Positions 2,642-21,743 of a stretch of DNA of 64,000 nt are shown piece after piece. The notes beneath the pieces were generated by a model. The model did no database searches. It had not been told where the DNA came from and worked only from the letters and a program-made list of their open reading frames with translations. The translations under genes were made by a program, and so were the position numbers. This stretch comes from an uncultured Chloroflexia bacterium (lineage in GTDB: Bacteria > Chloroflexota > Limnocylindria > Limnocylindrales > CSP1-4): contig CAVTNH010000004.1 of NCBI GenBank assembly GCA_963736025.1, forward strand, positions 25,309-89,308, in the 5' to 3' direction. Numbering within the stretch: the first letter of the stretch is position 1; every line of letters starts with the position of its first letter.

Positions 2642-5186
2642 CGGGAGGATGGTAGCCCACGCTGGCCGTCTGGCCCGGCCGGACGGCGACCGGAGCGATC
2701 GGCTTCGGCGGCCTCGGATCGGGGACGAGGCCCGCAGCGGGGATCCCGCACAGGAACGCGAAGGCTCGTCGATCCACGGCCGGCCGCCCGAGCTCGCCGG
2801 GACCGCCCGGCCGCCCTCGGCGCGGACCGTCAGCTCGGGCGACCCGAACGTCACGGCCACGCTCCCGTCGCGATCCGTCCGGAAGACGCGGGCGCCCGCC
2901 GCGGACAGTCGCTCCAGGGTGGCGCGCGCCGGATGGCCGTACGGGTTGCCGGTCCCCGCCGATGCGATCGCGATGCGCGGCCGGACCGCGTCGACGAACG
3001 CCTGCGTCGTCGCCGTCCGGCTGCCGTGGTGGGCGACCTTGAGCAGGTCGAGCCGGGGCAGGCGCTCGGCGAGCAGTGACGGGTCGATCGCCTCCTCGAC
3101 ATCGCCCGCCAGCAGGAACCGGTAGTCGCCGACGGCACCGAGCAGGACGACCGACACGTTGTTGATGCCGGTCCCGCCGTCCGGCGGCGCGAGCGGGACC
3201 CGGCCGCGGACCGGCCACAGGACGCGGAGGTCGATGTCGTCGACCGCGAGCCGGTCGCCCGCGGCAAGACCCAGGCGCATCGGCGATCCCGCCGACGCCA
3301 GTCGCGCGAGCCACGCCGCGTAGCCGGGCCCGGGTCCGCGCATGCCGGGCTCGAAGACCCGCCGGACCTGGTACCGATCCAGCAGCCGGGCGAGACCGGC
3401 CACGTGGTCCTCGTGCGGGTGGGTGAGGATCACCGCGTCGATCCGCCGATCCCACGGCGGGATCCGCTGGTCGAGCACGACGAGCAGGCGGCCAGGGTCT
3501 GGCCCGCCATCGATGAGGAGGCGCCCGCCGCGCGAGCCCTCGACGAGGATCGCGTCGCCCTGTCCGACATCGAGCACGCTCACCCGCGCGACGCCGCTCG
3601 GCCGGCTGACGAGGACGGCACCCGTCACCACCACGGTGATCACGAGGGTCATGGCCGCGAGCCTCGGCAGGCGGGAGGGTCGGGCGGAGGGACGCTTGGT
3701 CCGTGGCACCTGATCGGGGATCGGCGGTTCCACGGCGACGGCCGGCCGTGCATGGCGCCCTCGCCACCGGACGTGGACGACGGCGATGAGCGCGAGCGTC
3801 GCCACCGCTGTGACGGCGGCGATCGGCCCCGGCAGGGTGACGCTCGCGAACGGCAGCGACGCCATCGCGTCGACGATCGCGACCATGATCCGCAGCGAGA
3901 CCCAGCCGGGTGCCGCGAGGACGCTCCCGACCAGCGGCGGCGCACCGGCGAGGACCAGGAAGCCGCCGAGCATCGCGACGAGCCCGGCCGCCATCGCCGG
4001 AGCGACGAGCGGCACGACCGCGAGGTTGACGACCGGCGACAGGATCGCGAGCCGGCCGAAGGAGGCCAGCACGATCGGCAGGGTCGCCGCCTGCGCGGCC
4101 AGCGACACGCCGAGGCTCTCCGCGAGCCAGCCAGGCACATGGCCTCGACCCACGCGATCGATCCAGCCGGTCAACGGCGTGGCCCATGCGATCAGGCCGG
4201 CCGTCGCCAACGCGGACAGCTGGAAGCCCGCGTCGCGGATGAGCCCCGGATCGGCGACGAGCAGGATCACCGCTGCCCAGGCCAGCGCGGCGGCCGCGCG
4301 CCCGGCTCGCCCGGACTCTCGTGCCAGCAGCACGACCCCGGCCATCGCTCCCGCGCGCACGACCGATGCCGACGCGCCCGCGAACGCGACGTAGGCGACG
4401 ATCGCGACCATCGTCAGGATCGATCGACGGCGTCGGCGCATCCGGCCGGCCATCGCGGCGACCGCCGCGGCGACGATCGCGATGTTCCAGCCGGAGATCG
4501 CCACGACGTGACTGACGCCGGCCGTCGTGAACGCGGCGGCGAGATCGCGGTCCACGCGGTCGCGGAGTCCGACGAGGATGCCGGCGGCCAGCCCGGCTTC
4601 GGGTTCGGGCAGGACGGCCGCCAGCGCGGAGGCTGCGGCCTGCCGAGCGGCCTCGATCGCGTGCGACGCGTCGGCCGGTGGGCGCTCCACGCTCATCGAG
4701 CGTGCGGTGAGCGTGCCGATCGCCCCGATCCGTTCGAGGTAGTCGCCGTAGGGCGAGTCGGGTCGCGGCCGGATGGCCCCCTCGATCGTCAGGCGGTCGC
4801 CCGGGATCACCTCCGGATACGCGGGCAGGGTCGCGGCGACGCGGAACGGGCGTCTCTACGCCGTCACGTGATCGCAGGGTGGCGGTCTGCTGACCGGCTC
4901 GCGCCGCGCCGACCGCCTCCACCTCGAACGTCCACGGTCCCTTGCCGTCCGGCACGTCGCCTGGCGGCGCCGCGGGCGGCCCGACGGCGAGACGCACCAG
5001 CAGCAGCGCGGACCCGACGATGACCACGACGCCGGATCGAGTCGAGATGCGCGATGACCACCACCACGCCACGAGGAGCCCGGCACCGGCGAGCGCCAGA
5101 CCGGCGACGCCCATCGACCAGCCGATGACCGGGATCGCCCAGGCGGCGGCGATCGCCCCGACCGCCAGCCAGCCGCTGCGAGGCAC
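2638..5186 (-). CDS. comEC: DNA internalisation competence protein ComEC/Rec2 (competence plus metallo-beta-lactamase domains), frame-disrupted near 4840 and 2800
   Basis: Membrane N-terminus starts at GTG 5186. The core is in ORF 2390..4810 (GVSHVVAISGWNIAIV; VLDVGQGDAILV; ILTHPHEDHVAGL; KVAHHGS). The natural stop is only seen after a shift into the third frame. Confidence 0.85.
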
Positions 5187-5187
5187 G

Positions 5188-5991
5188 TCAGCGAACCGTC
5201 ACCAGCGGCTTGAGCTGCTCGAACGTCTTCTCGCCGACGAGCTTGCGGGTGCGCAGGTCGTCGATGGTCGCGAACGGCGCCTCCTCGCGGGCCGAGATGA
5301 TCTTTGCGGCCGTGACCGGCCCGATCCCCGGCAGAGCGTCGAGCTCCGAGCTGGTGGCCCGGTTCAGGTCGACGAGGCCGCCGCCGCTCGCCGGTCCGGG
5401 CTCGCCGTCGCTCGCGGCGGGGACGTCAGGCTCGGTGTCGTCCCGGGACGGGACGCGGACCTGGTCGCCATCGGAAAGCACCGCCGCCTGGTTCAGGACC
5501 TTGGCGGCACGCTCGGTGTCGACGCGCGGGCTGTACCCGCCGGCGGCATCGACGAGGTCGCCGACGCGCGAACCTGGCGGCAGTTCGTAGACGCCCGGAT
5601 GCGTGATGGCTCCGACGATCTCGACGACGACGCGTGTGGACGCGCCTGGTCCCGCCGGATCTCCCGTCGCACTCGGGCTGCCGCCCGGATCGTTCGACGC
5701 GCCGTCGAGCGGGGCGCCGCCGGCGACCGAGACGGCACCCGCCGCACCCGATCCGAACGCGAGGACGAATGCCGCGATCGCGACGAGCGCCGCGGCCACC
5801 GAGCGCGACAACCGCTCCGCGCGCGACGCGGGATGGCGGCCCTTCGTTCGTCGGCTCGCCGGGCGGCGGGACGGCGGTCGAGGTCGCCTCGATCGTCCGC
5901 CACGGCATCGGGTTCTGGTCCACGCGTGACCTTCCCCGGCGGGATGTATTCGGCGGGTGGACGTCGGCAGACGAACGCGACGTCTCGCCAC
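5188..5991 (-). CDS. comEA: competence protein ComEA (SLBB plus helix-hairpin-helix DNA binding); start uncertain
   Basis: C-terminal [40 protein letters not shown] (HhH) and [26 protein letters not shown] (SLBB). The stop lies 1 nt from the comEC start. Confidence 0.8.
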
Positions 5992-6086: not shown

Positions 6087-6210
6087 GACGCATGATCGTT
6101 AGGGCCCGTGCGGAGCCGCGTCCGTCGGTCCTTGGATGTACGCTTACCGGACCCATCGGGCGCGTATATATCGACCATCGATATATCGCCTGTCGTAAGA
6201 CTGGAGACCG

Positions 6211-6535
6211 GATGGAACCGAAGCTCCCCGAGTTCGGACGGTTCGCCGAACCGTCGTTGCTCATCCTGGTCAGCCTGAGCGACGGCCCGAAGCACGGCTA
6301 CGCGATCATGCAGGACGTCGAGCGCAGCACCGGTCGGCCGATGGGCGCCGGCACCCTCTATGCCGCGCTCGCGCGCCTCGAGGAACGCGGCCTTGTCGAA
6401 GCCCTGACCCCGGTCGATCGCCGGCGACCGTATCGCCTCACCGCGGTCGGAGCGTCGATGCTCGCGGAGCAGCTGCAGGGCCTGTCCGCCTTCGCGCAGC
6501 AAGGTCTCCGCCAGCTCGGCGACACTTCGTCATGA
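6211..6535 (+). CDS. PadR family transcriptional regulator
   Basis: LLILVSLSDGPKHGYAIMQDVERSTGRPMGAGTLYAALARLEERGLV is the PadR winged-helix signature. The stop overlaps the next ATG (ATGA). Confidence 0.85.
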
Positions 6536-7288
6536 GGTCGTTTGCTGATCCGCTGCTATCCCGCCCGCTGGCGGGCCCGGTACGGCGACGAGTTCGAAGT
6601 CGATCCTCGAGGAACGACCGCTTGGACCGTTCGACGTCGCTGACATCCTGTTGGGCGCCCTCGACGCCCATCTCCGCCGCGCCGGACAAGGCGCCACGAA
6701 CCACACGGGAAGGGATCTTGCCATGTCGCTCCGCATCGGCGGTATCGCCGCGATCGTCGGCGTTTCGCTCTTGACCGTCGGCCTCTTCGTGACCTCCGGC
6801 CTCGTCGTGACGGTCGACGTCGCCCGTCCCGTCGCTCCTGGTGATCGATCGGGACCGTGTCGCTGCTCGTCGCGATCGCCGGGCTCAGCGCGTTCCAGGC
6901 CCGCGTTCATCCCGTCCTGACCTGGGTCGCCTTCGCGATCCCGACGATCGCGACCCTCGTGTGCATCGTGGGGATCGTCGGGATGTACGTCGTGGAATCC
7001 ACGACGCCCAGCCTCTGGAGCAGCACGTGGGCCCCGTTGATCAACATCGGGGGCTTCTTGGGGTTCATCGGCTTCGGCTTGTTCGGGATCGCAACGTACT
7101 GGACAGGTGCGTTCTCGCGAGGGGCGGCGTTGTTGCTCAGCCTCGGCTCATTCCTGACGCCGATCGCGATCTTCAAGGACCCGTGGCTTGCCGTCGCGTG
7201 CGTCGCTTGCTTTCTTGTCGGCTGGCTCGTCCTCGGGTTCCAGGCGATCCGACTCGACCGACGTGCGCCGGATCCTCGGCCAGCCTGA
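6532..7288 (+). CDS. PadR-associated integral membrane protein, at least 3 frame disruptions (near 6540, 6595, 6850)
   Basis: After repair it reads MRS-LLIRCYPARWRARYGDEFEV-ILEERPLGPFDVADILLGALDAHLRR..., followed by 5-6 hydrophobic helices (ORFs 6651..6920 and 6857..7288). Confidence 0.6.
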
Positions 7289-7318
7289 CCGGGATCCGGT
7301 GGGTGCTGGACGCCGACC

Positions 7319-7456
7319 GTGAAGGCCATCGTCCTGCTCCTGCTCGCGGCCCTCACGTTTGCTTGCACCCGGCCGGCTTCCGACGACTCGCTTGTGCCGG
7401 CCGAGGTGGCGCCGGGCGCGGCGCCCCCACCCACGGCCATAGAGCCCGGCTACTAG
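7319..7456 (+). CDS. 45-aa putative mini-lipoprotein ending ...EPGY
   Basis: GTG start. VKAIVLLLLAALTFAC signal/lipobox-like N-terminus, Pro/Ala-rich tail, high GC3. Paralogue-like to ORF 39530..39670. Confidence 0.4.
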   Translation: MKAIVLLLLAALTFACTRPASDDSLVPAEVAPGAAPPPTAIEPGY

Positions 7457-7474
7457 CCCGAGGTTGGCCGGTCG

Positions 7475-7792
7475 CTACCCCTTGAGCGCGCCGCTCAGCC
7501 CGTCGCCGCGCAGGAACAGCCGCTGGAACAGCAGGAACAGCGCGATCGGGATGATGCTCGAGATCGTCAGCGCCGCGATGAACAAGCCGAGGTCCGTCGT
7601 CGGCTGAAGGGTCGGGAGGCGGACCGAGAGAGGCTGGATGTCCGGGTCGCGCAGCACGAGCAGCGGCCAGAGGTATTCCTTCCAGGTCACGATCACCGCG
7701 AACACCGACACGACCCCCACGATCGGGCGCGACATCGGCAGCACGATCGACCAGAAGAGCCGGAACGGGCCGGCGGCGCCGATATCGCGCGA
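7475..7792 (-). pseudogene. 3' remnant (last ~105 aa) of a carbohydrate ABC transporter permease (MalG/BPD_transp_1 type)
   Basis: SRDIGAAGPFRLFWSIVLPMSRP...WKEYLWPLLVL...LFLLFQRLFLRGDGLSGALKG matches only the C-terminal third of such permeases. The upstream part of ORF 7475..8122 is antisense to the next gene and unrelated. Confidence 0.7.
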
Positions 7793-7844
7793 CGGGGCCG
7801 AGACAGGGTGGCGATACTTTGCGGGCAGGGAGGTCAAGCCTTCG

Positions 7845-8880
7845 ATGACCAGACATGCTGCGCGAACCCTCGTCGCCGTCCCGCTGGTCGCGGCGCTGAG
7901 CGTCGGGATGTGGGGCTGCTCTTCGGGCACGCCGTCCGGGCAGCCGAGCGTCGCGAGCGGATCGCCGTCGCCTTCCGGCTCCGCGATCGAGTCGGAGTCG
8001 CCCTCGTCAGCTCCGCCGTCCGGAGGAGCGGTCTCCGTGTCGTTCGTGACGCCGATCCCCGAGGCCACGTGGGGCGCCACGTTCGTCGTCAAGGCCGAGG
8101 CGACCGACGGCAGTGACATCACCTACAGCGCCGAGGGCAGCTGCAGCATCGACGCGACCACGGGCAAGGCCAAGGCGGACGCGCTCGGTTCGTGCACGAT
8201 CATCGCCGACGCGCCGGAGACCGATCCGCTGGCGACCGCGTCGCAGGTCTTCGACGTCAGCCAAGGCCCATCCGGTCATCAAGTTCAGCGACGCCTCGAC
8301 GAGGTTCGCCAGGCCGTTCAAGTACCCGCTGAAGGTGACCTCGATCCCGAAGATCCCGCTCGACATCGTCGTCGATCACGGCGCGGCCGGCGGCAACAAC
8401 GACGAGTTCTGCAAGGTCGATGCCAGCGGCGCGCTGGTCTTCGACCCAGTGCCGACCGCCACGAACTTCCCCCAGATCCCGGCAACGTGTGTCGTCAAGG
8501 TCTCGGGCACCGCAACGGAGAACTACGACGCGCCGAAGTCCGTCTCGCGCAAGATCAAGATCGGTCTCGCCGCCTTCGACGTGAACGCCCAGGAGCTCAT
8601 CAACGTCGACCTCTCGAGCGACGGCGACGTCGTGGACTTCAAGGTCCGCGAGAACTCCGGCGACGCGTTCGGGATCTTCGTCTCGAGCGAGGACTTCGAG
8701 TGCGAGGCGCTCCCGACCACGCCGGACCCGGGCCCGGCCGGCACGAAGCTCTACATGGGCCACGTCAAGTTGCAGGCCACCGGCGTCCCGTACGATTGCC
8801 GCATGACCGCGCAGGCGGCGCCGCCGGACTACCAGGGCGGCAAGTTCAAGGACGACTTCGTCATCCACGTCGTGCCCTGA
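7845..8880 (+). CDS. putative secreted protein or lipoprotein, frame-disrupted near 8265
   Basis: MTRHAARTLVAVPLVAALSVGMWGCSSG signal with a Cys, Ser/Pro linker, then beta-rich domains continuing in ORF 8113..8880. Ends 18 nt before the TIR gene. Confidence 0.55.
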
Positions 8881-8898
8881 CCGGGACATGCCGGCCAG

Positions 8899-11800
8899 AT
8901 GAGTTCGGTCTTCCTGAGCTACTCGTCGAAGGACGTCAAGCTCGCGACCCGCATCCAGGAGCTGCTCGAGGAACGCGGATACGACGTCTTCCGTGACAAG
9001 GACCGCGACGAGGGGATCCCGGCCGGCACCAAGTGGGCGGAGGAGCTGTTCCTCAACCTGGAGCGTTTCCGGATCGTCGTCTTCCTCGCGACGCCGGCGT
9101 CGCTCGAATCGCGCTGGTGCCACACGGAGCTGGCGGTCGCGATGGCCCGACGCAAGCACGTCGTCCAGATCAGCACGCGGAAGGAGCCCGTCCATCCCGT
9201 TCTGGCGGCGACCCAGTCGATCGGTCCGATCCGCGACGTCGAGGAACTCGTCGACAAGCTCGTGGCGGACCTGGGACGGGTCGGGCTCGGGCCGCGCGAC
9301 AGCGCGAGCTGGGACCCGAACGTCTCCCCGTACCCAGGCCTGGAGCGACTGACCGAGAAGTACGCGGCCGTCCTGTTCGGGCGCGACGACGACATCGAGC
9401 TGGTCATCGACCGCCTCGAGCGACCGAAGCCCGCACCGGTCCTGGTCGTCGGCCCCTCGGGGAGCGGCAAGTCGTCGCTGATCCGGGCCGGCGTCGTGCC
9501 GGAGCTCAAGCGGCGGCCGCGGAACACGGTCCTGCCGGTCGTCGATCCCGGCGACGATGCCCTGCGGTCCGTCGCCCTTGAGCTCGAGCGAGCCGATCCC
9601 AAGAGCAACGCCGAAGACCTGATCAAGGACCCGGCGGCGTTCGCGCTCGCGATCGAACGCCTGGCGGCGACCACCGACGACGGCCGGGTCGTCCTCGTCA
9701 TCGACCAGGCCGAGGACCTCGTCCTGCCCGCGAACCGGGCTCGGGCAGTCGAGCTCGTCAAGCGGCTCGAGGCGATCGACCGCGACCGGCTGGCGGTCAT
9801 CGTCGTCCTGCGCAGCGCGTCGCTCGACCCGTGGATGCTCGATGCGGAGATCGGGGCGCTGACACCGGGCGATCCGGTGCAGATCCGCCCGCTCGACCGG
9901 GCCGCACTGCGCGAGGTGATCCTGGGACCGGCCCAGCTCGCCGGGATCCGCATCGAACCGGACACGCTCGTCGAGCAGATCCTCGACGACACCGTCCAGG
10001 GCGAGGCCCTGCCGCTCCTCGCGGCACTGCTCCAGGAGCTGACCAAGAACCACTCCCGGACGAATCCGGCGGTCATCACGCCGACCGAGTACGCGGCCGT
10101 CGGGCCGGTGAGCCGCGTCATCGAGCGCCGGGCGCAGGCCGCGGTGGACGACGTCAAGGCCAAGGTCGGACGCTTCGAGGCGGACGTCGTGGATTCGTAC
10201 CTCCGGCTCGTGGCCATCGACGAATCGCGGCAGCCAGTCCGGACCCAACTCGTCGCGGACGGGCTGCCCGCCGACGTCGCGGCGATCTTCGGGATCCTCG
10301 AGGACTACCGGCTCGTGACGCGCGATCGCCGGGCGATCCCGGTACCGGCGGACGCGCCGGCGGCACGCCGGCACTGGTCAGCCTCCCGCGGCGCAGGAGA
10401 TCCTGATGGCGGTCCACGAGGCGGTCTTCCGGGCCTGGACGGCGCTCAAGGCGGCCATCGACGCCCGGCTCGATGCCCTTCGGATCCGGACCTGGCTGCG
10501 TCACGACGCGGAGGAGTGGGCCGGCTCGAAACGAGGGCAGGTGTCGCTGACGGGAGGACGGCTGGATCTGGCCCTGGAGTGGTCGCGCGACAACGCCGAC
10601 GAGGTGACGCCGGAGATCAGGGCCTACATCGACCAAGCGAAGAGTCAACGACGGCGCGGCAGGATCGCGAGGCTCGCTGTGGCCGGCCTGGCAGTCGTGG
10701 TCCTGGCGGTCGGATTCGTGGCGTTCCAGGCGGTCCAGGCACGCAACGATGCCGAGGCCTCGCGTCTCGCCGCGGACGCGCGGGCCAACTTCGGGACGCG
10801 GCTCGATCTCGGGCTCCTGCTGGCGCTCGAGGCCCGTGCCAAGAGTGCCGACCCGCGGTTCCAGGCGATGCCCCTCGTCGGCCTGTCGCAGGGTCCGGGT
10901 CCGCGCCACTTCGGGGGTCCGCAGGGAGGACACCCCGACTCGGCGGCGCTCAGCGCGGACGGGTCGCGAGCCGTCGTCTCCTTCTCGAACGTGGTCCAGC
11001 TCTGGGACGTGGGGGCCAACAGACGGTTGGCCTCGATCCTGGGCCCTCCCAACGTCGCGGGTATCTCTCGTGACGGGTCCACGGTCGCGATCGCCTATCA
11101 GATCGAGAACCAGCCCTACCAGATCAACATCGGTTCGTGGCCGGAGGAGGCCCCACGCCTGTCGTGCCTCGTGCCCGGTGACATCCAGACGATCGCTGTC
11201 TCTCCGGCGAACGACTTCGTCGTCGCGGTGGTTGACACGCCCGAGCGCCGCGTGGTGCAGGTCGTCTCGACGTCGGACTGCCGCGGACCGTCGCTCGATC
11301 GACTGGAGGACGTGGTCGGGGACATCGACATCGCCGATGGGCGCATCGCCATCGGCACGGAGCGCGGCGCCGCCATCTGGGATCCAGTGAGCGACACGCT
11401 CGACACGTGGTCCACCGACGACACGAGCACGGTGCGGGCGATCGCGTTCGGCGACGGCGACCGTCTTGGTGCGACGTCCGATTCCGGCGACCTCTTCGTC
11501 TGGGATGCGTCGGTGCCGGGTTCGCCTCCGCGCCAGTTCCCGGTCTTTGCCAGTGACGTCGATGGCGGCAAGCTCCGCTTCTCCACCGACCTGAACGCCT
11601 GGATCGTGGGGTCCATGTATGGGGACCTTCGCGTCGTCGGGTTCGACGACAAGTTCACGGTCGGTGCGTCGGCCACCTCCCTGCCGGAGGACAACCCGTT
11701 CGACGACAGTGCACACGGACGCCCACGCCCTGGACATCGCCGCCACACCGACTGGCGCCGTCACCGTCGATGAGAGCGGCCGCATCGTCACGTGGGACCT

Positions 11801-12782
11801 CGTCGGGACGCCGCCACTCGGTGGCCGTGTGTTCGCCGACGCGAGGATCGATCGGCTTCGTGTCCTCCCGTCCGGGCCCCTCATCGCCGGAGGGCCTGAG
11901 GGCGTGTGGCAGCTCGACGGGGTGACCGGTGCGGTCCTCGGCCACCGCGCGACCGATGCCGGTGACGGCGATCGCCCCGGGCGCCAACGGTTGGGCCATC
12001 GGCCTCTCGACGGGCGAGGTCCTGCGCACGGCGGGCCCCGTCGACGGCCTCGCGACGGTCGGCCACGGTGGCGGGTCCGGTCGCGGCGATCGCCATGCTC
12101 GACTCGGGCGGCCTCGCGATCGCCGACCACGCCGGTGCGGTCACCGTCGTCGAACCGTCAGGGGCCTCGACGGCCGTGCCGCTCGCCAGCCCGATCCTGT
12201 CGCTGGCCAGCCGCGGGAACTGGCTCTTCGCGGGTGCGCAACGACGGGACGATCCACGTCGTCGATACGAACGGGCCGGCGCGAGAGGTGGCGCAGTCGG
12301 AGAAGCACGGCATCGAGGTCAACACCCTCGAGGTGAGCCCTGACGGCAAGACCCTCGTCAGCGGCGGCGACGATCGGCAGGTCATCACGTGGACCATCGG
12401 CTCCGATGGCAGCCTGACCCCCCATTGGTTCCTCAGCGGCCACACGGATCGGGTCAACACGCTGTCCATCAGCCCGGACGGCCACTGGCTCGCATCGTCC
12501 GGCGAGGACGAGCACGTCATCCTCTGGAACCTGGACACCGGCGATCGTGTCGGCGACCCGATCCCGGTCGGCCGGGAGCCGGTGCTCGCCTTCGGGACCG
12601 GGGACCGGCAGCTCTTCATCTCCGACGATCTCGAGGGCGTGCGACGCTGGGACATGCGACCCGAGGCGTGGGTCAAGGCCGCCTGCGACATCCTCGGTGG
12701 CCGCACCCTCGGTCCCCTCGAGCAGCTTGAGTTCTTCGGTAGTCTGGGGCTGAAATCACCTGACCGCTGCGGTGCACCATGA
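8899..12782 (+). CDS. TIR domain - STAND P-loop NTPase - TM helix - WD40 repeat protein (~1290 aa), 5 frame disruptions (near 10350, 11705, 11950, 12065, 12240)
   Basis: TIR: FLSYSSKD...SRWCHTELAV (Glu codon 9127-9129). NTPase: PYPGLERL...FGRDDDI...VVGPSGSGKSSLIRAG (9451-9477) and VLVIDQAED. AVHEAVFRAW...LRHDAEEW helical region. Hydrophobic helix at about 10673-10723. WD40 units, for example GHTDRVNTLSISPDGHWLASSGEDEHVILWNL. Assembled from ORFs 8899.., 10406.., 11619.., 11929.. and 12068... Confidence 0.8.
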
Positions 12783-12788
12783 GCGGGC

Positions 12789-14576
12789 ATGACCGACGAT
12801 CCCCGCGACGATCAGGCGACCCAGATCAACCTCGAGGGCGGCAACCGGGCGCTGATGGTCCAGGCGCGCGCCCGGACGCCGGTCGCCTCGATGACCGCGG
12901 CGCTCGGGATCGCCGGCCCACGCCCGGTCCTGCTGGTGATCGGCGGCGCCGACGGGCTGTCGAAGGCCGCGGAGCCGAGCATTCGGACGCTGGTCGACGC
13001 CGGCGTCGTCCCCGCGGTGGAGACCGTGGGACCGGTGGTCGTCGACGGCGGCACGGACGCGGGCATCATGGCGATCGTGGGCGGAGCCATCGCCGCCGCG
13101 CACGTCCAGGTGACCGTGCTCGGCGTGGCGCCCGCCGGGCGCGTGACCTGGAAGGACGACACCCGGTCCGGCATGTCCGGGGCCACCGCTCTAGAGCCGC
13201 ACCACACCCATTTCGTCCTCGCGGACAGCGATGCGTGGGGCGGCGAGACGCCGCTCCTGTTCGAGGTGGTCGAGGCGATCGCGGACCCCTCCCGGACGGT
13301 CGCGATCGTCGCGGGCGGCGGTCCAGGGACGCTACGCGAGGTCGCGACGGCCGTCCGCCGTGGCATCCCTGTCATCGCTCTTTCCGGCAGCGGCGGGGTC
13401 GCCGATGACCTGGCGGCCGCCGCGGCGGCGCGCGACTCGAAGAGCCCGTCGAACAAGGCCGATCCCGAGCTGACCACGATCCTGGGAGATATCGAACTCA
13501 CCGTCGTCGCAGCCGAAGCGGAGCCCGCCCTGCTCGAACGCATACTCGTCCGACGACTCGAGCCGGACGAGACGCTCCGGACGGCCACGCGCCAATACCG
13601 GATCCTGTCGCGCACCGCGCGAGAGCAGCAGCGCGCGTTCGCGTGGTACCAGCGGGCGATCCTCGCGCTGGGACTTCTCGCGACGATCCTCATCGTCCTC
13701 CAGGCCCAGCTCCGGAACGGAGAGGCGTCGTTCAAGGGCTCGCCCGCCGACCAGGTCCTCCAGTTCGGCATCGTGCTGATCCCGATCGCGGTCGGCGTGC
13801 TCGTCGCGGGCGCCGCCCGCCTGCGACCCGGCGGCCGCTGGGTCCTGTTGCGCGGGGCGGCGGAGGCCATCAAGCATGAGACCTATCGATACCGCGCCCG
13901 CACGGGGCTGTACGCGCCCGACGAGACCCGCCGGACGTCGCGCGAGGTGAAGCTGGCCGCGGCCGTCGGGTCGACGATGAACGCCCTGATGCTCACAGAC
14001 GTCAACCTCTCGGCGATCGACACCGGCCGTCCGGAAGACGATCCCGTGGCCACGATGGACCGCGACAGGGATGACTGGACGCGCCCGCTCGGAGCGGCCG
14101 AGTACATCCGCTTCCGGATCGACGACCAGGTCAAGTACTACCGGAAGACCGTGCGTGAACGTGAGCGCCTGGTGCTGGGCCTGCGTTGGGTGATGCTCGG
14201 GTTCGGCGGCCTGGGGACGGTCCTCGCGGCCGCCGGGTTCCAGCTGTGGGTCGCGGTGACCGTGGCCGTCGTCGGGGCCCTGACCACCTACCTCGAGGCG
14301 ATGCAGCTGGAAGCCTCGATCATGCTCTACAACCAGGCGGCGACGACCCTCGAGGGCATCCGGGCCTGGTGGACGGCCCTTCCGCCCGATCAGCAGGTGC
14401 TCCGGCGGAACTTCGACCGGCTCGTGGAGCGCTCGGAGCGGGTGATGCAGGCCGAACACGGCGGCTGGGTCCAGCAGATGCAGGACGCGATGACGAAGCT
14501 GCACCTCGAGGAGATCGACGAGGCCGCCGCGGACGCCGACGACGGCGAAGGCGCGACCGAGAAGACGCCCGCCTAG
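12789..14576 (+). CDS. SLOG (TRPM/LSDAT-like) nucleotide-sensor domain fused to two SLATT/DUF4231-like 2-TM modules (intact, 595 aa)
   Basis: Gly-rich Rossmann-like motifs [26 protein letters not shown] and [33 protein letters not shown] pairs at aa 287-343 and 463-505, each followed by motifs of the type [14 protein letters not shown] / YYRK...LYNQAA. Starts 6 nt after the TIR gene stop. Confidence 0.7.
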
Positions 14577-15618
14577 GTCTCGCGGGGATCGGTCGCGCCG
14601 TCCGCGGTCTGGTGTGCTGCCCGGTAGTGCGCCGCCAGACGGTCCTCGCCCCAGTCGTTCGTCAGGTCGCGCCAGACCGAGTGGATGTGGTTCCCGCCGT
14701 TCTGCGTGTTGTCGTACTCGATGAGGAAGGCCGGCCCGTGGATCGCGTAGTAGTGGCCGCGGCCCGGCATGTCCGGACCCGGCCCACGCGAACGTGACGG
14801 GCGGCAGACCGGCGCGACGAATGCGCGCCCATTCGGCCTTCGGCGATGTCGGGTCGCGCCCGCTCGAGGTAGTGGCGGATGAGCCGCTCGAGGCCCTCGC
14901 GTTGAGCGGTTTCGAGCCGTTCGTACGGGATGCCGTCCGGCACACCCCGCAGCTCCGCCCGACGGCCGTTCCCGCTTCGGATGTCGGGCGGCGCGACGGG
15001 ATCGACCACGGCGATCGCCCGCTGCTCGGCTGACAGGCTCGCGAGCAGCGCCCGGGCCAGCGTCTCCTCGCCGTCGATGGTCCGCTCGCCGGCCCGCGGT
15101 CCCCCAGGGATCGTGGCCGGGTTCGCGCCGAGGAACGAGGGAGCGGCCGAGATGACCTCGCCGCCCGCCATCGTCAGCACGATCGCGACGTGGTGTCCGT
15201 TGATGCGCAGGGCCCAGGGCTCGGGGCCGCCGGGGTCGCCGAAGACCGAGAACCAGTACAGCTCCGGATCCCGCCGCGGCGCATCGAGCCAGCCGGCATC
15301 GCGTTCGACCTGGCCGAGGACCTCCTCGAGGGCCATGATCGCCCGGACCTCTCGGGCTCCTCGGATGCTGAGCGCGGCATCGAGAGTGGCGGTCGCGGCC
15401 TCGCGTTGGCCAACGGACATCGCGGCGATCGGCAGGCCGTTCCGGTCGCCCGGCGTGTAGGCCCACGCGAATCGCTCGTCGGTCTCGAACGGGAAGGTCG
15501 CCCGGGCGCGCTGCGCCGGCTCCAGCGCGTCGAGCCAGGCGCTCACGGCGTCGGCGATCTCGGTCGCGGAAGCGCGCTCAAGCGGGTCGGCGGTGCTTGG
15601 CTCCGGGCGGGTGGCCAT
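14573..15618 (-). CDS. DUF3500 family protein, 2 frame disruptions (near 14830-14900)
   Basis: [21 protein letters not shown]...[28 protein letters not shown]... and C-terminal [31 protein letters not shown], spread over three frames. Confidence 0.7.
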
Positions 15619-17018: not shown

Positions 17019-17651
17019 ATGCCAACCAAGACCGCCCTGCACCCCACTGAAACGGGCCACGCCCACGACGTCAGCGTGGAGACCACCTTCGACTTCCTGA
17101 ACACCCTCGACCACGACGATGGTTTCCCCAGGGAGAAGCTCCCCGACATCGATGGCGTCCTCTCCTGGTTCGCCGAACGCGGCCTCATCCATCACGAAGG
17201 CGCCGACAAGGCACGCCGCGAGGCTGCGTCCCACCCGCGCGTCTCGGCGCGCGATCTCGAGCGGGTCAGGACCGTCCGGGCGGCGCTCCGCGAGGTCGCC
17301 GACTCGGTCGTCGAGCACCGTGCGGCGCGCAAGGACGCGCTCGCGACCGTCAATCAGGCGCTGCACGCCCGCCAGGTCATCGAGCTCGCCCCGTCGCCCG
17401 ACGGCGTCAGCGTCGACCATCGCCATGTCGGCGACCCGATCGACGACGCACTCGCGCGACTGTCAGAGGCGATGGTCACCGAGCTGACCAGCGGCCATCC
17501 GGACCGGTTCCGCGTCTGCGACAACGACACGTGCCAGTGGATCTTCTACGACACCTCGCGCACGGCCCGACGCCGCTGGTGCGACATGGCGACCTGTGGC
17601 AACCGGGCCAAGGCGGCGCGCCACCGCGCCAAGATGTCGCTCAGGATCTGA
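17019..17651 (+). CDS. CGNR zinc-finger (ABATE) domain protein
   Basis: C-terminal FRVCDNDTCQWIFYDTSRTARRRWCDMATCGNRAKAARHR is the CGNR zinc-finger signature. Intact 210 aa. Confidence 0.85.
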   Translation: MPTKTALHPTETGHAHDVSVETTFDFLNTLDHDDGFPREKLPDIDGVLSWFAERGLIHHEGADKARREAASHPRVSARDLERVRTVRAALREVADSVVEHRAARKDALATVNQALHARQVIELAPSPDGVSVDHRHVGDPIDDALARLSEAMVTELTSGHPDRFRVCDNDTCQWIFYDTSRTARRRWCDMATCGNRAKAARHRAKMSLRI

Positions 17652-17657
17652 GGCCGG

Positions 17658-18601
17658 CTACCCGGCGCGTTCCAGGACCGGCCGGACCTCGGTCGCGAAG
17701 CGGGTCATCGACTCCTCGTCGTGCGGCGACGGGAAGCCCGCGATGAGGTGGCGGTAGCCGATGTCGAGGTAGGGGAGCAGTCGCTCCGCGACGTCCTCCG
17801 GCGTGCCGACCGGCTGGTCCGTCCACAGGTCGGCGTGGCCGTTGCGCTCGAAGATCGCCTTCTGGACGCGGACGGCCTCCTCGCGCGAGTCGCGGATGAT
17901 CACGGCGCCGATCCCGCTCGTCCGCTCGATCTCGGCCGGGTCGCGCCCGACGGTCTCGCAGTGCTCGAGCAGGAGCGCTTCCTTGCGCTTCACGGTCGCG
18001 AGCCCGCCGCCGACGTTGTTCGCGTCGCGCGTACTTCGCGACCAGCTTGAGCGTGACCCGCTCGCCGCCACCGCCGACGAGCAGCGGCAGCCGCTCCTGG
18101 ATCGGCGGCGGGTCGTTGCGGACGGCCTTCGCCGAGTAGCGCGGCCCGGCCGCGGTCGGGCGCTCGCCGTGGAGCATGCCGCGCATGATCGGGAGGGCCT
18201 CGCCGAGCCAGCGCAGCCGCTCCGGGAACCCGCTCCCGAACTCGAGGCCGTAGGCGATGTGCTCGGTCTCGAACCAGGCGCCGCCGATGCCGAGGATGGC
18301 CCGGCCGTTCGAGATGTGGTCGAGGGTCGTCGCCATCTTCGCGGTGAGCGACGGCTCGCGGAACGTGTTCGCCCCGACCATCAGGCCGATCCGGACCTGC
18401 TCGGTGGCCTGCGCCCAGGCGGCCAGCGTCAGCCAGCCCTCGAAGATCGGCCCCTCGTGGCTGCCGACGATCGGATAGAGGTGGTCCCAGGTCCAAAGCG
18501 GTCGAGTAGCCGAGCCGGTCGGCGCGGATGCCGGCCTCGAGAAGGCTCGGCCAGTCCGTGTACTGGTTCCAGCAAAGGGCTCCGATCCTGACTTCGGGCA
18601 C
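17658..18601 (-). CDS. LLM-class (F420-dependent-like) luciferase-family oxidoreductase, 2 frame disruptions (near 18035 and 18500)
   Basis: GTG 18601 after GGAGGAG. VPEVRIGALCWNQYTDW...WTWDHLYPIVG...RIGLMVGANTFREP...GRAILGIGGAWFETEH...LLVGGGGERVTLKLVAKYA...AERLLPYLDIGYRHLI, spread across three frames. Confidence 0.75.
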
Positions 18602-19199: not shown

Positions 19200-21743
19200 T
19201 CAGTCGCGGACGACGATGTTGATGAGCTTGCCGCCGGCGTGGATGACCCGCTCGGGGGTCCGGCCGGCCAGGGCGGCGACGATCTTCGGGCGCGCCAGGA
19301 CGAGCGCCTCGAGGTCCTCCTTGGCCGTGTCGATCGGCACGGTCACGAGGTCGCGCAGCTTGCCGTTGACCTGGACCGGCACCTCGCGGGTCGCCTCCGC
19401 GGTCGCGGACACGTCGACCTCGGGCCAGGCCTGCGCGTGGATCGATGACCAGGGCTCGCCCGCGGCCGTCAGCCGACGGCTCCACAGCTCCTCGGTGATG
19501 TGCGGCGCCGCCGGCGCCAGCATCAGCAGCAGCAGCCGGATCGCCTCGTCCCACTCCGCGGAGCCGGCGATCGGCGTGCCGCGATAGCGGAACAGGGTGT
19601 TCGAGAGCTCCATCAGCTTCGCGAGCATCGTGTTGAAGTGGAACGACTCGTAGTCCGCGGAGACGTCGCGCAGCGTCTTGTGGACGGCGCTGCGGAGCGT
19701 GGCCTTGGCCGTCGCCTCGGTCTCGCCGGCGGCCAGGACGCCTGAGTCCGGATTGCCGGCCTCGCGACCCTTCGCATCCAGCACGAGCGTCCAGACGCGG
19801 TTCAGGAACCGATGGACGCCGCCGATCCCGCTCGGGCTCCACGGCCCACCCTGGTCCCACGGGCCCATGAACATCAGGAACAGGCGGACGGTGTCGGCGC
19901 CGTACCGCCGGACGAGGTCGTCCGGGTCCTGGACGTTGCCGCGCGACTTCGACATCCGCTCGCCGTCGGCGCCCAGGATCTGGCCCTGGTTGAACAGCTT
20001 GAGGAACGGCTCCCGCTCGGTGATCAGGCCGAGGTCGGCCATCGCCTTCGTGAAGAAGCGGCTGTACAGCAGGTGCATGACCGCGTGCTCGGCGCCACCG
20101 GTGTACTCGTTGACCGGGGTCCAGCGCTTCACCATCTCCGCGTCCACCGGCCCGTCGCTCTTGTGGGGCGAGAGGTAGCGGAACCAGTACCACGACGAGT
20201 CGACGAACGTGTCCATCGTGTCGGTCTCGCGGCGCGCCGGCCGGCCGCACACGGGGCACGTGACGTTGACGAACGCGGCGTCGTGGTTGAGCGGGTTGTC
20301 GCCGCTGCCGTGGTAGTCGACGGTCTCCGGCAGCAGGACCGGCAGCTGGTCGTCGGGCACCGGGACGATGCCGTCGACCTCGCAGTAGATGACAGGGATC
20401 GGCGTGCCCCAGTAGCGCTGGCGGCTGACGAGCCAGTCGCGCAATCGATACGTGACCTTCGGCTCCGCGCGGCCGGTCTCGGCCAGCCAGGCGACGATGG
20501 CCGCCCCGCCCTCGTCGGCCGACTGGCCGTCGAAGCGGCCGCTGTTGACGAGCACCTCGCCCTCGGTGTGCGCGACGAAGGCCGCCTCGACCGGCGCCGT
20601 GGCGTCCACGCCCGGCGCGGCGACGACGCGCCGGATCGGCAGCCCGAACTTCTGCGCGAACAGGAAGTCGCGCTCGTCGTGGGCGGGCACGGCCATGATC
20701 GCGCCCGTGCCGTAGCCGGACAGCACGTAGTCCGCGATGAAGATCGGGATCCGCTCGCCGTTGACCGGGTTGACCGCATCGGCGCCCAGGGCGACGCCGG
20801 TCTTCTCGCGGTCGGTCGACAGGCGCTCGATCTCGGTCCGCCGGCGGGCCTGCGTGACGTACGCCTCGACCTCGGCCTGCCTGTCCGGGTGGGTCAACCG
20901 CTCGACGAGCGGGTGCTCCGGGGCCAGGACCATGAACGTGGCGCCGAACAGCGTGTCCGGCCGGGTCGTGAAGACACGGATGACGTCGCCGCCAGGCTGG
21001 TGGTCGTCCGCCGCCGTCGCGAAGTCGATCTCGGCGCCCTCGGAGCGGCCGATCCAGTTCGTCTGCTGGATCCGGATCGGTGCCGGCCAGTCGATGCCGT
21101 CGAACTTGAGCAGCTCGTCCGCGTAGGCGGTCGTCCGCAGGAACCACTGCTCGAGGTCGCGCTTCTCGACGAGCGCGCCGCAGCGCCAGCAGCGGCGGTC
21201 GGGTCCCTCGACCTGCTCGCGCGCGAGCGTGCCGTCGTTGGGGCACCAGTCGACCGGCGACATCGCCCGATACGCCATGCCGGCCTCGAGGAGTCGCAGG
21301 AACAGCCACTGGTTCCACTTGTAGTAGGCGGGGTCGGCGGTGACGACCTGGGTCTCCCAGGCGAACATCGCGCCCATCGTCTGGAACTGGCGACGCATCG
21401 TCTCGATGTTCTGCATCGTCCAGGTGAACGGGTGTCCGCCGCTCTTGATGGCCGCGTTCTCGGCCGGCAGCCCGAACGCGTCGAACCCGATCGGGAAGAA
21501 CACGTTGTAGCCGTGCATCCGACGGAATCGCGCGAGCGCGTCGGTCGGCGTCACGATGTACCAGTGGCCGATGTGCAGGTCACCCGACGGGTACGGGTAC
21601 ATCGTCAGCTGGTACCACTTGGGCCGCGAGTCGTCGCGCAGGTCCGTCTCGTCCATCCCGAGCTCGGCCCAGCGCGCCTGCCAGCGCGGCTCGATCGAGG
21701 TCGGGTCGTAGCGTTCGATCCGGGTTCGGGCGTCGGTGGTCAC
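19200..21743 (-). CDS. leuS: leucine--tRNA ligase (intact, 847 aa from GTG 21743)
   Basis: YPSGDLHIGHWY (HIGH), ERMSKSRGN (KMSKS), a CP1 editing domain, and full-length similarity to the LeuS pattern. The upstream 142 codons of ORF 19200..22169 are Arg/Gly-rich read-through. Confidence 0.95.
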   Translation of the reverse strand: MTTDARTRIERYDPTSIEPRWQARWAELGMDETDLRDDSRPKWYQLTMYPYPSGDLHIGHWYIVTPTDALARFRRMHGYNVFFPIGFDAFGLPAENAAIKSGGHPFTWTMQNIETMRRQFQTMGAMFAWETQVVTADPAYYKWNQWLFLRLLEAGMAYRAMSPVDWCPNDGTLAREQVEGPDRRCWRCGALVEKRDLEQWFLRTTAYADELLKFDGIDWPAPIRIQQTNWIGRSEGAEIDFATAADDHQPGGDVIRVFTTRPDTLFGATFMVLAPEHPLVERLTHPDRQAEVEAYVTQARRRTEIERLSTDREKTGVALGADAVNPVNGERIPIFIADYVLSGYGTGAIMAVPAHDERDFLFAQKFGLPIRRVVAAPGVDATAPVEAAFVAHTEGEVLVNSGRFDGQSADEGGAAIVAWLAETGRAEPKVTYRLRDWLVSRQRYWGTPIPVIYCEVDGIVPVPDDQLPVLLPETVDYHGSGDNPLNHDAAFVNVTCPVCGRPARRETDTMDTFVDSSWYWFRYLSPHKSDGPVDAEMVKRWTPVNEYTGGAEHAVMHLLYSRFFTKAMADLGLITEREPFLKLFNQGQILGADGERMSKSRGNVQDPDDLVRRYGADTVRLFLMFMGPWDQGGPWSPSGIGGVHRFLNRVWTLVLDAKGREAGNPDSGVLAAGETEATAKATLRSAVHKTLRDVSADYESFHFNTMLAKLMELSNTLFRYRGTPIAGSAEWDEAIRLLLLMLAPAAPHITEELWSRRLTAAGEPWSSIHAQAWPEVDVSATAEATREVPVQVNGKLRDLVTVPIDTAKEDLEALVLARPKIVAALAGRTPERVIHAGGKLINIVVRD

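Follow-up and report, generated by a model that had tools for sequence, protein, structure and literature searches.

A conserved putative TIR signalling cassette with a predicted transmembrane nSTAND1-WD40 receptor, a lipoprotein and a SLOG-SLATT membrane protein in a soil Chloroflexia bacterium

How might a TIR-STAND receptor communicate with the SLOG-SLATT membrane protein encoded directly downstream of it, and on which side of the membrane would it perceive its trigger? These questions are raised by a 64,000-nucleotide stretch of DNA from a soil Chloroflexia bacterium (the window; ~70% G+C), which carries a cassette of a lipoprotein gene, a TIR-STAND-WD40 receptor gene (gene 1) and a SLOG-SLATT gene (gene 2). 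An initial annotation, made from the sequence alone, had described genes 1 and 2 as an NLR-like sensor that signals to a membrane pore. The cassette is real, conserved and under selection, and its most likely mode of action is messenger signalling from TIR to SLOG-SLATT. Instead of a cytosolic NLR, the origin of the signal would be a membrane receptor that has a lipoprotein partner and carries its propeller on the outside. The closest public relatives of the window are long-read soil metagenome-assembled genomes (MAGs) named 'uncultured Chloroflexia bacterium' (MFD10043.bin.2.10 and MFD04944.bin.1.217). The features of the cassette are listed below, with positions counted in the window; aa stands for amino acids and TM for transmembrane.

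7845-8880, + strand: predicted lipoprotein gene; one +1 insertion at about 8260; orthologue of intact genes of 343-345 aa
8899-12782, + strand: gene 1, TIR-nSTAND1-TM-WD40 receptor; ATG at 8899, TGA at 12780-12782; 1292 aa once repaired
8908-9222, + strand: TIR domain of gene 1; Pfam TIR_2, aa 4-108, E = 2.1e-18
9328-10504, + strand: nSTAND1 NTPase of gene 1; Pfam nSTAND1, aa 144-478, E = 2.5e-56
10664-10726, + strand: single TM helix of gene 1, IARLAVAGLAVVVLAVGFVAF; aa 589-609, Kyte-Doolittle 19-residue mean 2.5
10817-12779, + strand: WD40 beta-propeller region of gene 1; Pfam WD40/beta-propeller families, E = 4.8e-16 on the last fragment
12789-14576, + strand: gene 2, SLOG-SLATT membrane protein; ATG at 12789, TAG at 14574-14576; intact, 595 aa
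12921-13445, + strand: LSDAT_prok SLOG domain of gene 2, predicted cytoplasmic ligand sensor; Pfam, aa 45-219, E = 4.3e-46
13593-13931, + strand: first 2-TM module of gene 2, DUF4231/SLATT_3-like; Pfam DUF4231, aa 269-381, E = 3.7e-11; SLATT_3, E = 8e-5
13656-13712 and 13755-13811, + strand: TM helices of the first 2-TM module; hydropathy and AlphaFold2 helices
14103-14468, + strand: second 2-TM module of gene 2, SLATT_1; Pfam, aa 439-560, E = 2.1e-24; NCBIfam SLATT_1, E = 1.3e-26
14169-14231 and 14241-14303, + strand: TM helices of the second 2-TM module; hydropathy

Both genes have the layout that the initial annotation had given them. For gene 1 it had proposed four parts (TIR, STAND, a hydrophobic helix and WD40) and a length of about 1290 aa after frame repair; Pfam and hydropathy upheld every domain call, and the repaired protein has 1292 aa with no internal stop. 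For gene 2 it had proposed an intact protein of 595 aa, 6 nt downstream, with a SLOG domain and two 2-TM SLATT/DUF4231-like modules, and Pfam agrees. The three motifs it had named in gene 1 were located as well: SRWCHTE at 9109-9129, which ends in the codon of the catalytic Glu77 (GAG, 9127-9129), the Walker A motif GPSGSGKSS at 9451-9477 (K191 codon at 9469-9471) and the Walker B motif VLVIDQAED at 9691-9717. The last 40 positions of the nSTAND1 match lie in the next reading frame (Pfam, E = 3.3e-4), and the first of five frameshifts in gene 1, at about 10367, falls inside this region. The WD40 region, which holds the other four, aligns over its full length to intact orthologues.

The residues expected of an active enzyme and of a functional P-loop are preserved in gene 1. 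When aligned with phmmer, Glu77 coincides with the catalytic Glu of Caenorhabditis elegans TIR-1/SARM1 (WVHKEL) and of RUN1 (SRWCLDEL). Across 41 TIR-nSTAND1 homologues E77 and W73 are invariant, as are G185, K191, D269, E272 and R305 of nSTAND1 together with the motifs GxxGxGKS and DQxE. PADLOC models of ThsB match the TIR (best E = 1.2e-11), which with its predicted intact catalytic Glu would qualify as the TIR protein of a Thoeris system. Gene 1 as a whole has the Walker A and B motifs, N-terminal effector domain and C-terminal WD40 region of an nSTAND1-clade STAND protein. An AlphaFold2 model of aa 1-489 (mean predicted local distance difference test, pLDDT, 86.8) has its best fold match in the plant TIR-NLR RPP1 resistosome, followed by Cdc6/Orc1-type AAA+ proteins. 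In RPP1, the TIR NADase is assembled by oligomerisation of the NB-ARC domain.

Gene 2 belongs to a large family with a shared architecture: public data (ENA/NCBI) hold a protein 100% identical to it, on a 95.8-kb contig, and more than 150 homologues of the same layout. Its Pfam matches to LSDAT_prok, DUF4231/SLATT_3 and SLATT_1 are all above gathering scores, and the fusion of an N-terminal LSDAT_prok domain to 2-TM SLATT modules makes it a SLOG-SLATT conflict effector; in NCBIfam 20.0 it matched generic SLATT domain models only. The AlphaFold2 model (pLDDT 83.6, predicted template modelling score 0.77) consists of a Rossmann-like domain followed by long helical hairpins, and hydropathy predicts four TM helices. 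Because an Arg-rich stretch precedes the first of these, the SLOG domain is predicted to be cytoplasmic. It carries the motifs GGA, DGGT, HxHF, WG and GGxGTxxE (aa 177-184). When a SLOG profile of 56 homologues was compared with the PDB, MHR1/2 of TRPM2 was matched with E = 1e-22 and the remaining TRPMs, without exception, with E values between 1e-11 and 1e-20; in Foldseek the top matches of the domain were likewise all TRPM channels. The invariant W150 aligns with Y295 of human TRPM2, which we take to be an ADP-ribose (ADPR) contact of that channel together with R302 and R358. Adjacent to a TIR gene and equipped with a SLOG domain homologous to the ADPR-binding MHR1/2, gene 2 would have what a Thoeris effector needs.

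The position of the sensor follows from the helix between the NTPase and the propeller. In gene 1 its N-terminal flank contains six Lys/Arg residues and its C-terminal flank two. All 11 partner proteins of the TIR...WD40 type, whether cyanobacterial, actinobacterial or from Chloroflexota, have this segment at a conserved position, and each of them has 4-6 Lys/Arg on the N-terminal and 1-3 on the C-terminal side, the positive-inside signature of an N-in/C-out orientation. A single hydrophobic segment also separates nSTAND1 from WD40 in 8/8 metagenome nSTAND1-WD40 proteins and in a paralogue (L112). An equivalent segment is present in 36 of the 44 nSTAND1 homologues with at least 150 residues after the NTPase, and the TM-bearing homologues include some annotated with FGE-sulfatase or TPR families. 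A single positive-inside TM segment between STAND and sensor is, by these predictions, a hallmark of the nSTAND1 clade. Since the TIR and STAND domains need cytoplasmic NAD+ and ATP, the propeller is placed outside the cytoplasmic membrane, and the WD40 propeller of gene 1 is probably extracytoplasmic. Some other STAND proteins have been predicted to have sensor domains in the periplasm (PMC10907252); no discussion of an outward-facing sensor topology was found in the searchable STAND and TIR literature.

Independent support for an external propeller comes from the co-conserved lipoprotein gene, which ends 18 nt upstream of gene 1. In its product, a signal peptide with a lipobox Cys is followed by a linker rich in Ser, Ala and Pro and by a Cys-rich domain of roughly 270 aa; the protein matches no Pfam or NCBIfam family, and tblastn with the intact orthologues of loci L003 and L002 shows the gene to be split in two frames. 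A homologue of the lipoprotein gene immediately precedes the sensor gene in the close orthologous loci L001-L004, in the paralogous L112 (E = 7e-48) and in the Actinomycetota loci L051 and L059 (E about 1e-17). This co-conservation spans four lineages, and the lipoprotein-sensor pair is the tightest module of the cassette. The lipoprotein is a probable extracytoplasmic third component, to judge by its predicted export signals; the initial annotation had made no mention of its gene.

To define the partners of the effector, a forward census was made of 80 loci of gene 2 relatives, one genome per species, plus loci from four more distant homologues; six-frame open reading frames (ORFs) were searched with iterated hidden Markov models (HMMs) built from the window and its orthologues. 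Among the 53 SLOG loci with at least 5 kb on both flanks, a TIR ORF was located within 5 kb in 28 cases and within 1 kb in 23. The SLOG-TIR loci are drawn from Chloroflexota, Cyanobacteriota, Actinomycetota and other phyla, with SLOG either fused to SLATT or beside a separate SLATT gene. In a Solirubrobacteraceae MAG (L014:7959-10319) the components form a single protein of 787 aa, LSDAT_prok-DUF4231-SLATT_1-TIR_2, with the TIR at the C-terminus. A Pfam census of 103 immediate neighbours in 26 TIR-less SLOG loci revealed no other recurrent candidate signal generator. TIR is one consistent partner of the SLOG-SLATT effector family and, because the neighbour census found no alternative generator, its sole consistent one. 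The recurrent neighbourhood across phyla, together with the L014 fusion, is the reason to regard the TIR/SLOG-SLATT link as functional. As a separate observation, the sole recurrence in the TIR-less loci was a two-partner secretion pair, a TPS-domain exoprotein and a ShlB/POTRA transporter, beside the SLOG and SLATT genes of five cyanobacterial loci (L025, L026, L028, L033 and L039), which may be lineage-specific synteny.

The TIR partners vary in architecture. The complete TIR-nSTAND1-TM-WD40 form was found in the Chloroflexia orthologues, in Mycobacterium sp. E787 (L074), in the Actinomycetota MAGs L051 and L059, where STAND was assigned with a custom HMM, and in a Chthoniobacterales MAG. 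STAND-less TIR-TM-WD40 proteins occur in L072 and L078, and shorter TIR proteins in L086 and L088. Partners in filamentous cyanobacteria (L017 from Moorena, L023, L052 and L060) combine two or three tandem TIR_2 domains, one TM segment and 7-14 WD40 repeats, and a STAND module could not be recognised in them; their layout would put the propeller outside and the TIR array inside, joined by the TM helix. Several TIR genes surround the SLOG gene in L048, L051, L059 and L088.

Among characterised systems, the cassette comes closest to Thoeris. In type VII, a short TIR protein, ThsB, is paired with the SLATT effector ThsH and the signal is canonical cyclic ADPR (cADPR); type I uses a SLOG sensor, and type III comprises several TIRs and a SLOG effector (bioRxiv 10.64898/2025.12.03.692087). 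As in type VII, a TIR gene adjoins a SLATT membrane effector, and a TIR product is proposed to drive SLATT oligomerisation and breach of the membrane. In the cassette, however, a short stand-alone ThsB is replaced by a TIR at the N-terminus of the 1292-aa STAND-TM-WD40 receptor, the effector adds an N-terminal LSDAT SLOG and two tandem 2-TM modules, and the family lives in Chloroflexota, cyanobacteria and actinomycetes, whereas type VII hosts are Proteobacteria and Bacillota. The survey tables give the type VII effector as 'SLATT' alone, without LSDAT or PF18171; the tables as a whole have no LSDAT entry, and TIRs of Avs-type proteins were explicitly excluded from that survey (bioRxiv 10.64898/2025.12.03.692087). 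With an embedded TIR and an additional SLOG, the cassette falls outside type VII in spite of its SLATT domains.

Types I (ThsB with the SIR2-SLOG protein ThsA; 3'cADPR) and III share with the proposed cassette a TIR-made ADPR derivative read by a SLOG-superfamily domain of the effector, and type III resembles the multi-TIR loci described above. Gene 2, unlike ThsA, has no SIR2 domain and no PADLOC ThsA match, its SLOG lies in the LSDAT/TRPM branch, and its output would be a SLATT pore instead of a SIR2 NADase; it is not a ThsA. The gene 1 TIR matches the NCBIfam model of type III ThcB4 only weakly (46.5 bits, cutoff 220). By its domain content, then, the cassette would work like Thoeris, with a TIR messenger and a sensor-effector, joined to an nSTAND1 receptor, and it lies outside every typed Thoeris class.

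Two comparisons reach into animals. TRPM2 has a homologous N-terminal SLOG (MHR1/2) with the shared motifs GGA, DGGT, HxHF, GGPGT and GxGxxAD, and there, as proposed for gene 2, a cytoplasmic SLOG gates a membrane permeation module upon binding an NAD-derived ligand. The membrane part of gene 2, in contrast, is formed by two 2-TM SLATT modules and not by a 6-TM TRP channel, and NUDT9-H is lacking; with the SLOG domain alone in common, gene 2 is not a TRPM channel. Burroughs et al. (2015) reportedly proposed the evolutionary link between LSDAT_prok and TRPM and also tied the SLOG-SLATT fusion to TIR, and that paper and Burroughs & Aravind (2020) were reportedly the first to predict SLOG-SLATT-TIR links. 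The SLATT name ('SMODS and SLOG-associating 2TM effector') and the Pfam family LSDAT_prok indicate that the fusion had already been catalogued computationally. Toll-like receptors offer an analogy only: a repeat sensor outside, a single TM segment and a TIR inside, most clearly in the STAND-less TIR-TM-WD40 proteins. In gene 1 the order is reversed, with the TIR N-terminal, the repeats are WD40 and not leucine-rich repeats, and the TIR is predicted to act as an enzyme, not as a scaffold. The comparison does not imply that the architecture as a whole descends from a common ancestor.

We hypothesize that the lipoprotein and the C-terminal WD40 propeller form a sensing module outside the cytoplasmic membrane, linked by one TM helix to the cytoplasmic nSTAND1 NTPase and the N-terminal TIR. 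The module would perceive an extracytoplasmic or envelope cue, for which the candidates include a phage attacking the envelope, damage to the envelope and a signal sent by neighbouring cells. Nucleotide-dependent oligomerisation of STAND at the inner face of the membrane would then gather the TIR domains into an active NADase, as in plant TIR-NLR resistosomes, and cleavage of NAD+ would yield ADPR or a cyclic or modified form of it. This product may be bound by the cytoplasmic SLOG of gene 2, the homologue of TRPM2 MHR1/2, upon which the two SLATT 2-TM modules would open or oligomerise into a membrane-breaching pore, leading to depolarisation and to cell death or dormancy. For this full model, a three-gene membrane-embedded TIR signalling cassette of lipoprotein, receptor and SLOG-SLATT pore, we consider the chances evenly balanced. 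An anti-phage role is assumed. The initial annotation had called the exact wiring experimentally untried to its knowledge, and our search of the literature likewise found no experimental test of TIR-STAND-WD40/SLOG-SLATT wiring.

Several results weigh against this model. About half of the SLOG loci lack a TIR within 5 kb. Among the sensors, the paralogue L112 (51% identity) and the distant homologues L113 and L114, all TIR-nSTAND1 genes on long contigs, have no SLOG or SLATT within 8 kb, and a TIR-nSTAND1 profile scan gave 22 further metagenome loci without SLOG/SLATT, which are mostly short and weakly informative. The topology was assigned from hydropathy and charge bias. In the SLOG domain, the positions of TRPM2 R302 and R358 are not conserved and only Y295 has a counterpart (W150), so the ligand may be a different ADPR derivative; E184 of the LOG-like GGxGTxxE motif is at least 90% conserved in the family, and the domain might thus process its ligand enzymatically as well as sense it. 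PADLOC (2023) has no family for gene 2 at E <= 0.1, and for the WD40 part it has no meaningful defence model either, so that defence-system models recognise the TIR and leave the effector unassigned. Finally, no defence genes lie near the cassette, which is not in a defence island, and the insertions that break gene 1 are outside homopolymers.

The neighbourhood survey points both ways: TIR recurs beside SLOG and is fused to it once, and 3/3 distant TIR-nSTAND1 homologues are unpaired. The sensor family is independent of SLOG-SLATT, and the effector family recurrently recruits TIR proteins. The initial proposal that the TIR signals in trans to a SLOG-gated pore gains from the neighbourhoods, the fusion and the TRPM2-like SLOG, and has to be qualified in that the pairing is not obligatory from the sensor side. 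Two of the unpaired loci deserve a description of their own. In L112:6809-11862, from the same sample assembly as L002, a paralogous lipoprotein gene precedes a TIR-nSTAND1-TM-WD40 gene without SLOG/SLATT, which leaves the possibility that several sensors could feed one effector in trans. In L113:8001-17745 (Rhodococcus sp. MTM3W5.2, CP019572.1), a TIR-nSTAND1 gene with fragmented WD40 ORFs lies beside prophage capsid, portal and terminase genes.

The main rival assigns the effector function to the TIR, which would deplete NAD+ in the manner of TIR-Avs, TIR-pAgo and CBASS-TIR; SLOG-SLATT would be an accessory amplifier sensing the ADPR by-product or an independent neighbour. We place it on the unlikely side. 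The N-terminal position of nSTAND1 proteins has been described as an effector slot (PMC8195603), and among the homologues it is also occupied by trypsin, caspase, kinase or BTAD domains; exchange with trypsin, caspase and kinase effectors (PMC8195603) is what an effector TIR would lead one to expect, as is the lack of nearby SLOG/SLATT in L112, L113 and L114. The Thoeris survey, too, set STAND-TIRs aside as probable NAD-depleting effectors (bioRxiv 10.64898/2025.12.03.692087). Against direct depletion stands the recurrence of TIR, and of TIR only, beside LSDAT SLOG/SLATT across phyla, which extends to STAND-less TIR-TM-WD40 and TIR-only partners, as well as the existence of the SLOG-SLATT-TIR fusion. 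The 6-nt gap and the joint purifying selection on genes 1 and 2 likewise speak for a shared function, and L112, coming from the sample of L002, could feed the single SLOG-SLATT gene there in trans.

A second alternative keeps the same machine and gives it a non-phage role, such as a response to envelope stress or, in filamentous multicellular bacteria, programmed cell death or the surveillance of kin and neighbours; we think it unlikely. It draws on the distribution of the family, which is enriched in filamentous or multicellular lineages (Chloroflexia, heterocystous and filamentous cyanobacteria, actinomycetes, Thioploca and Thiotrichaceae), and the general idea that conflict systems of this kind are enriched in multicellular prokaryotes has been proposed before (Kaur et al. 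2020, PMC7159879). The genomic setting fits as well. The gene order, comEC, comEA, lipoprotein, sensor, SLOG-SLATT, a convergent DUF3500 gene and, further on, leuS, is kept in genomes whose gene 2 proteins are 71-87% identical, so the cassette sits at a syntenic locus without defence genes nearby. A scan of IMG/VR for SLOG-SLATT relatives found none, and the sensor is predicted to face outward. On the other side, anti-phage functions have been established or predicted for TIR, SLOG and SLATT alike, and one relative adjoins a prophage. The sensor also evolves faster than the signalling domains, with a ratio of nonsynonymous to synonymous substitution rates (dN/dS) of about 0.3 in the WD40 region vs 0-0.13 for TIR and STAND, which is compatible with an arms race.

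A third alternative keeps recognition in the cytoplasm: an Avs/NLR-like gene 1 product, either cytosolic or no more than tethered to the membrane, would capture a protein of the invader there with its propeller and then signal through its TIR to SLOG-SLATT. Avs, bNACHT and plant TIR-NLRs do share with gene 1 the order of N-terminal effector or signalling domain, STAND NTPase and C-terminal repeat sensor, RPP1 is the best fold match, and WD40 sensors are known in Apaf-1-like bacterial STANDs (PMC13581612). Gene 1 differs from all of them in its nSTAND1-clade NTPase and in the conserved TM segment between NTPase and sensor, and the cassette differs in its separate downstream effector gene and upstream lipoprotein gene. 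The strongly hydrophobic, positive-inside segment was present between STAND and propeller in every relative examined, and one membrane pass cannot keep both halves cytoplasmic; the co-conserved lipoprotein is extracytoplasmic by definition. A cytosolic phage-protein-binding sensor, as in Avs, is argued against by the predicted position of the gene 1 sensor beyond the TM helix, and on this predicted topology the propeller, lying outside the cytoplasm, would not bind phage proteins there as Avs does. We consider a cytosolic sensor improbable. The cytosolic NLR-like sensor of the initial annotation is accordingly not borne out, as the conserved TM segment puts the propeller beyond the membrane; of its proposed union of Avs/NLR-type sensing with a Thoeris-type messenger, the Thoeris-like logic is partly supported and the Avs-type cytosolic sensing is not.

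The preferred reading, a membrane receptor that signals to the SLOG-SLATT protein, presupposes that gene 1 is intact in the host. Relative to intact orthologues, it contains five +1 insertions, at about 10367, 11712/3, 11957/8, 12061 and 12239-42; deletion of five bases restores a 1292-aa ORF without an in-frame stop. The intact orthologues, likewise of 1292 aa (L002:4050-7928, L003:4115-7993 and L004), are 92-94% identical in nucleotide sequence, and each lies directly upstream of a SLOG-SLATT gene. Together with that of the lipoprotein gene, 6/6 indels are +1 insertions, which suggests a systematic artefact. A frame plot of G+C at third codon positions could not tell frameshifts from gene boundaries, and tblastn with orthologous proteins was used instead. 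By this method other genes of the window proved to be split across frames as well: comEC, comEA, the lipoprotein gene, the DUF3500 gene (two breaks) and a luciferase-like gene. The neighbours among them are given here with their ranges.

3149-5923, 14603-15618 and 17549-18601: frame-split neighbours comEC, comEA, DUF3500 and luciferase-like oxidoreductase; tblastn vs intact orthologues

The apparent indel error rate around the cassette is roughly 0.7 per kb. The insertions at 10367 and 11957 immediately precede CCGG, and a methylation-related basecalling or polishing error might explain them. Repaired gene 1 has a dN/dS (Nei-Gojobori) of 0.21-0.22 against its closest orthologues, and pairs of intact orthologues have 0.19-0.29; the TIR has a dN/dS of 0 against L004, with zero nonsynonymous changes, and gene 2 has 0.20-0.27. 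Because the neighbours are also frame-split, intact orthologues exist and the repaired gene has a dN/dS of ~0.2, the five frameshifts are most probably consensus errors of long-read metagenome assembly. That gene 1 and the lipoprotein gene are instead real pseudogenes, with gene 2 alone functional, is highly improbable: five frameshifts crowd into 3.9 kb beside an intact 1.8-kb gene 2 and an intact 2.5-kb leuS (19203-21737), and none lies in a homopolymer, yet comEC, comEA and the DUF3500 and luciferase-like genes are frameshifted too, the sister assemblies L001 and L002 of the same project break other genes, essential leuS among them, the uniform +1 direction points to an artefact, and selection on the stop-free repaired gene equals that on intact orthologues.

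A few observations concern the rest of the locus. About 1.9 kb between comEA and the lipoprotein gene are present in the window and missing from L002 and L003; read by eye, this segment appears to hold genes for a PadR-like regulator (6092-6535) and for a small protein with several TM helices (6857-7288). A scan of 7200-15000 for sigma-70 promoters and intrinsic terminators gave 0 sites of either, a result that is uninformative for this organism. ARAGORN calls a 98-nt 'tRNA-Gln' antisense to the WD40 coding region, at 12100-12197 (- strand); as Rfam has no tRNA there, the call was rejected as a probable false positive.

In the bacterial TIR systems characterised so far (Thoeris types I-XI) the TIR proteins are small and cytosolic, and the characterised STAND sensors of bacteria (Avs, bNACHT) meet the phage proteins that they bind in the cytoplasm, and they kill directly. 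If the proposed reading is true, the cassette unites both, in that a STAND-controlled TIR becomes the messenger generator for a separate effector. It would make two additions that are not discussed in the searchable literature: an outward-facing sensor with a dedicated lipoprotein, and an effector whose own sensor is the closest prokaryotic relative of the human TRPM2 ADPR site. More broadly, and only tentatively, nSTAND1 proteins such as that of gene 1 may be receptors for bacterial immunity or cell death that span the membrane once, with a propeller outside that works with a dedicated lipoprotein and a STAND-TIR module inside, and that gate a TRPM2-like SLOG-SLATT pore through an NAD-derived messenger; this would be outside-in bacterial TIR signalling, concentrated in multicellular lineages and a counterpart of Toll-like receptor topology and of ADPR-gated TRPM2. 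If confirmed, the cassette would offer a tractable, ancestor-like model for SLOG-gated permeation, and bacterial TIR signalling could begin from an extracytoplasmic cue. Messenger-based immunity or cell death would then extend to Chloroflexota, cyanobacteria and actinomycetes, where screens based on E. coli and Bacillus would have missed it.

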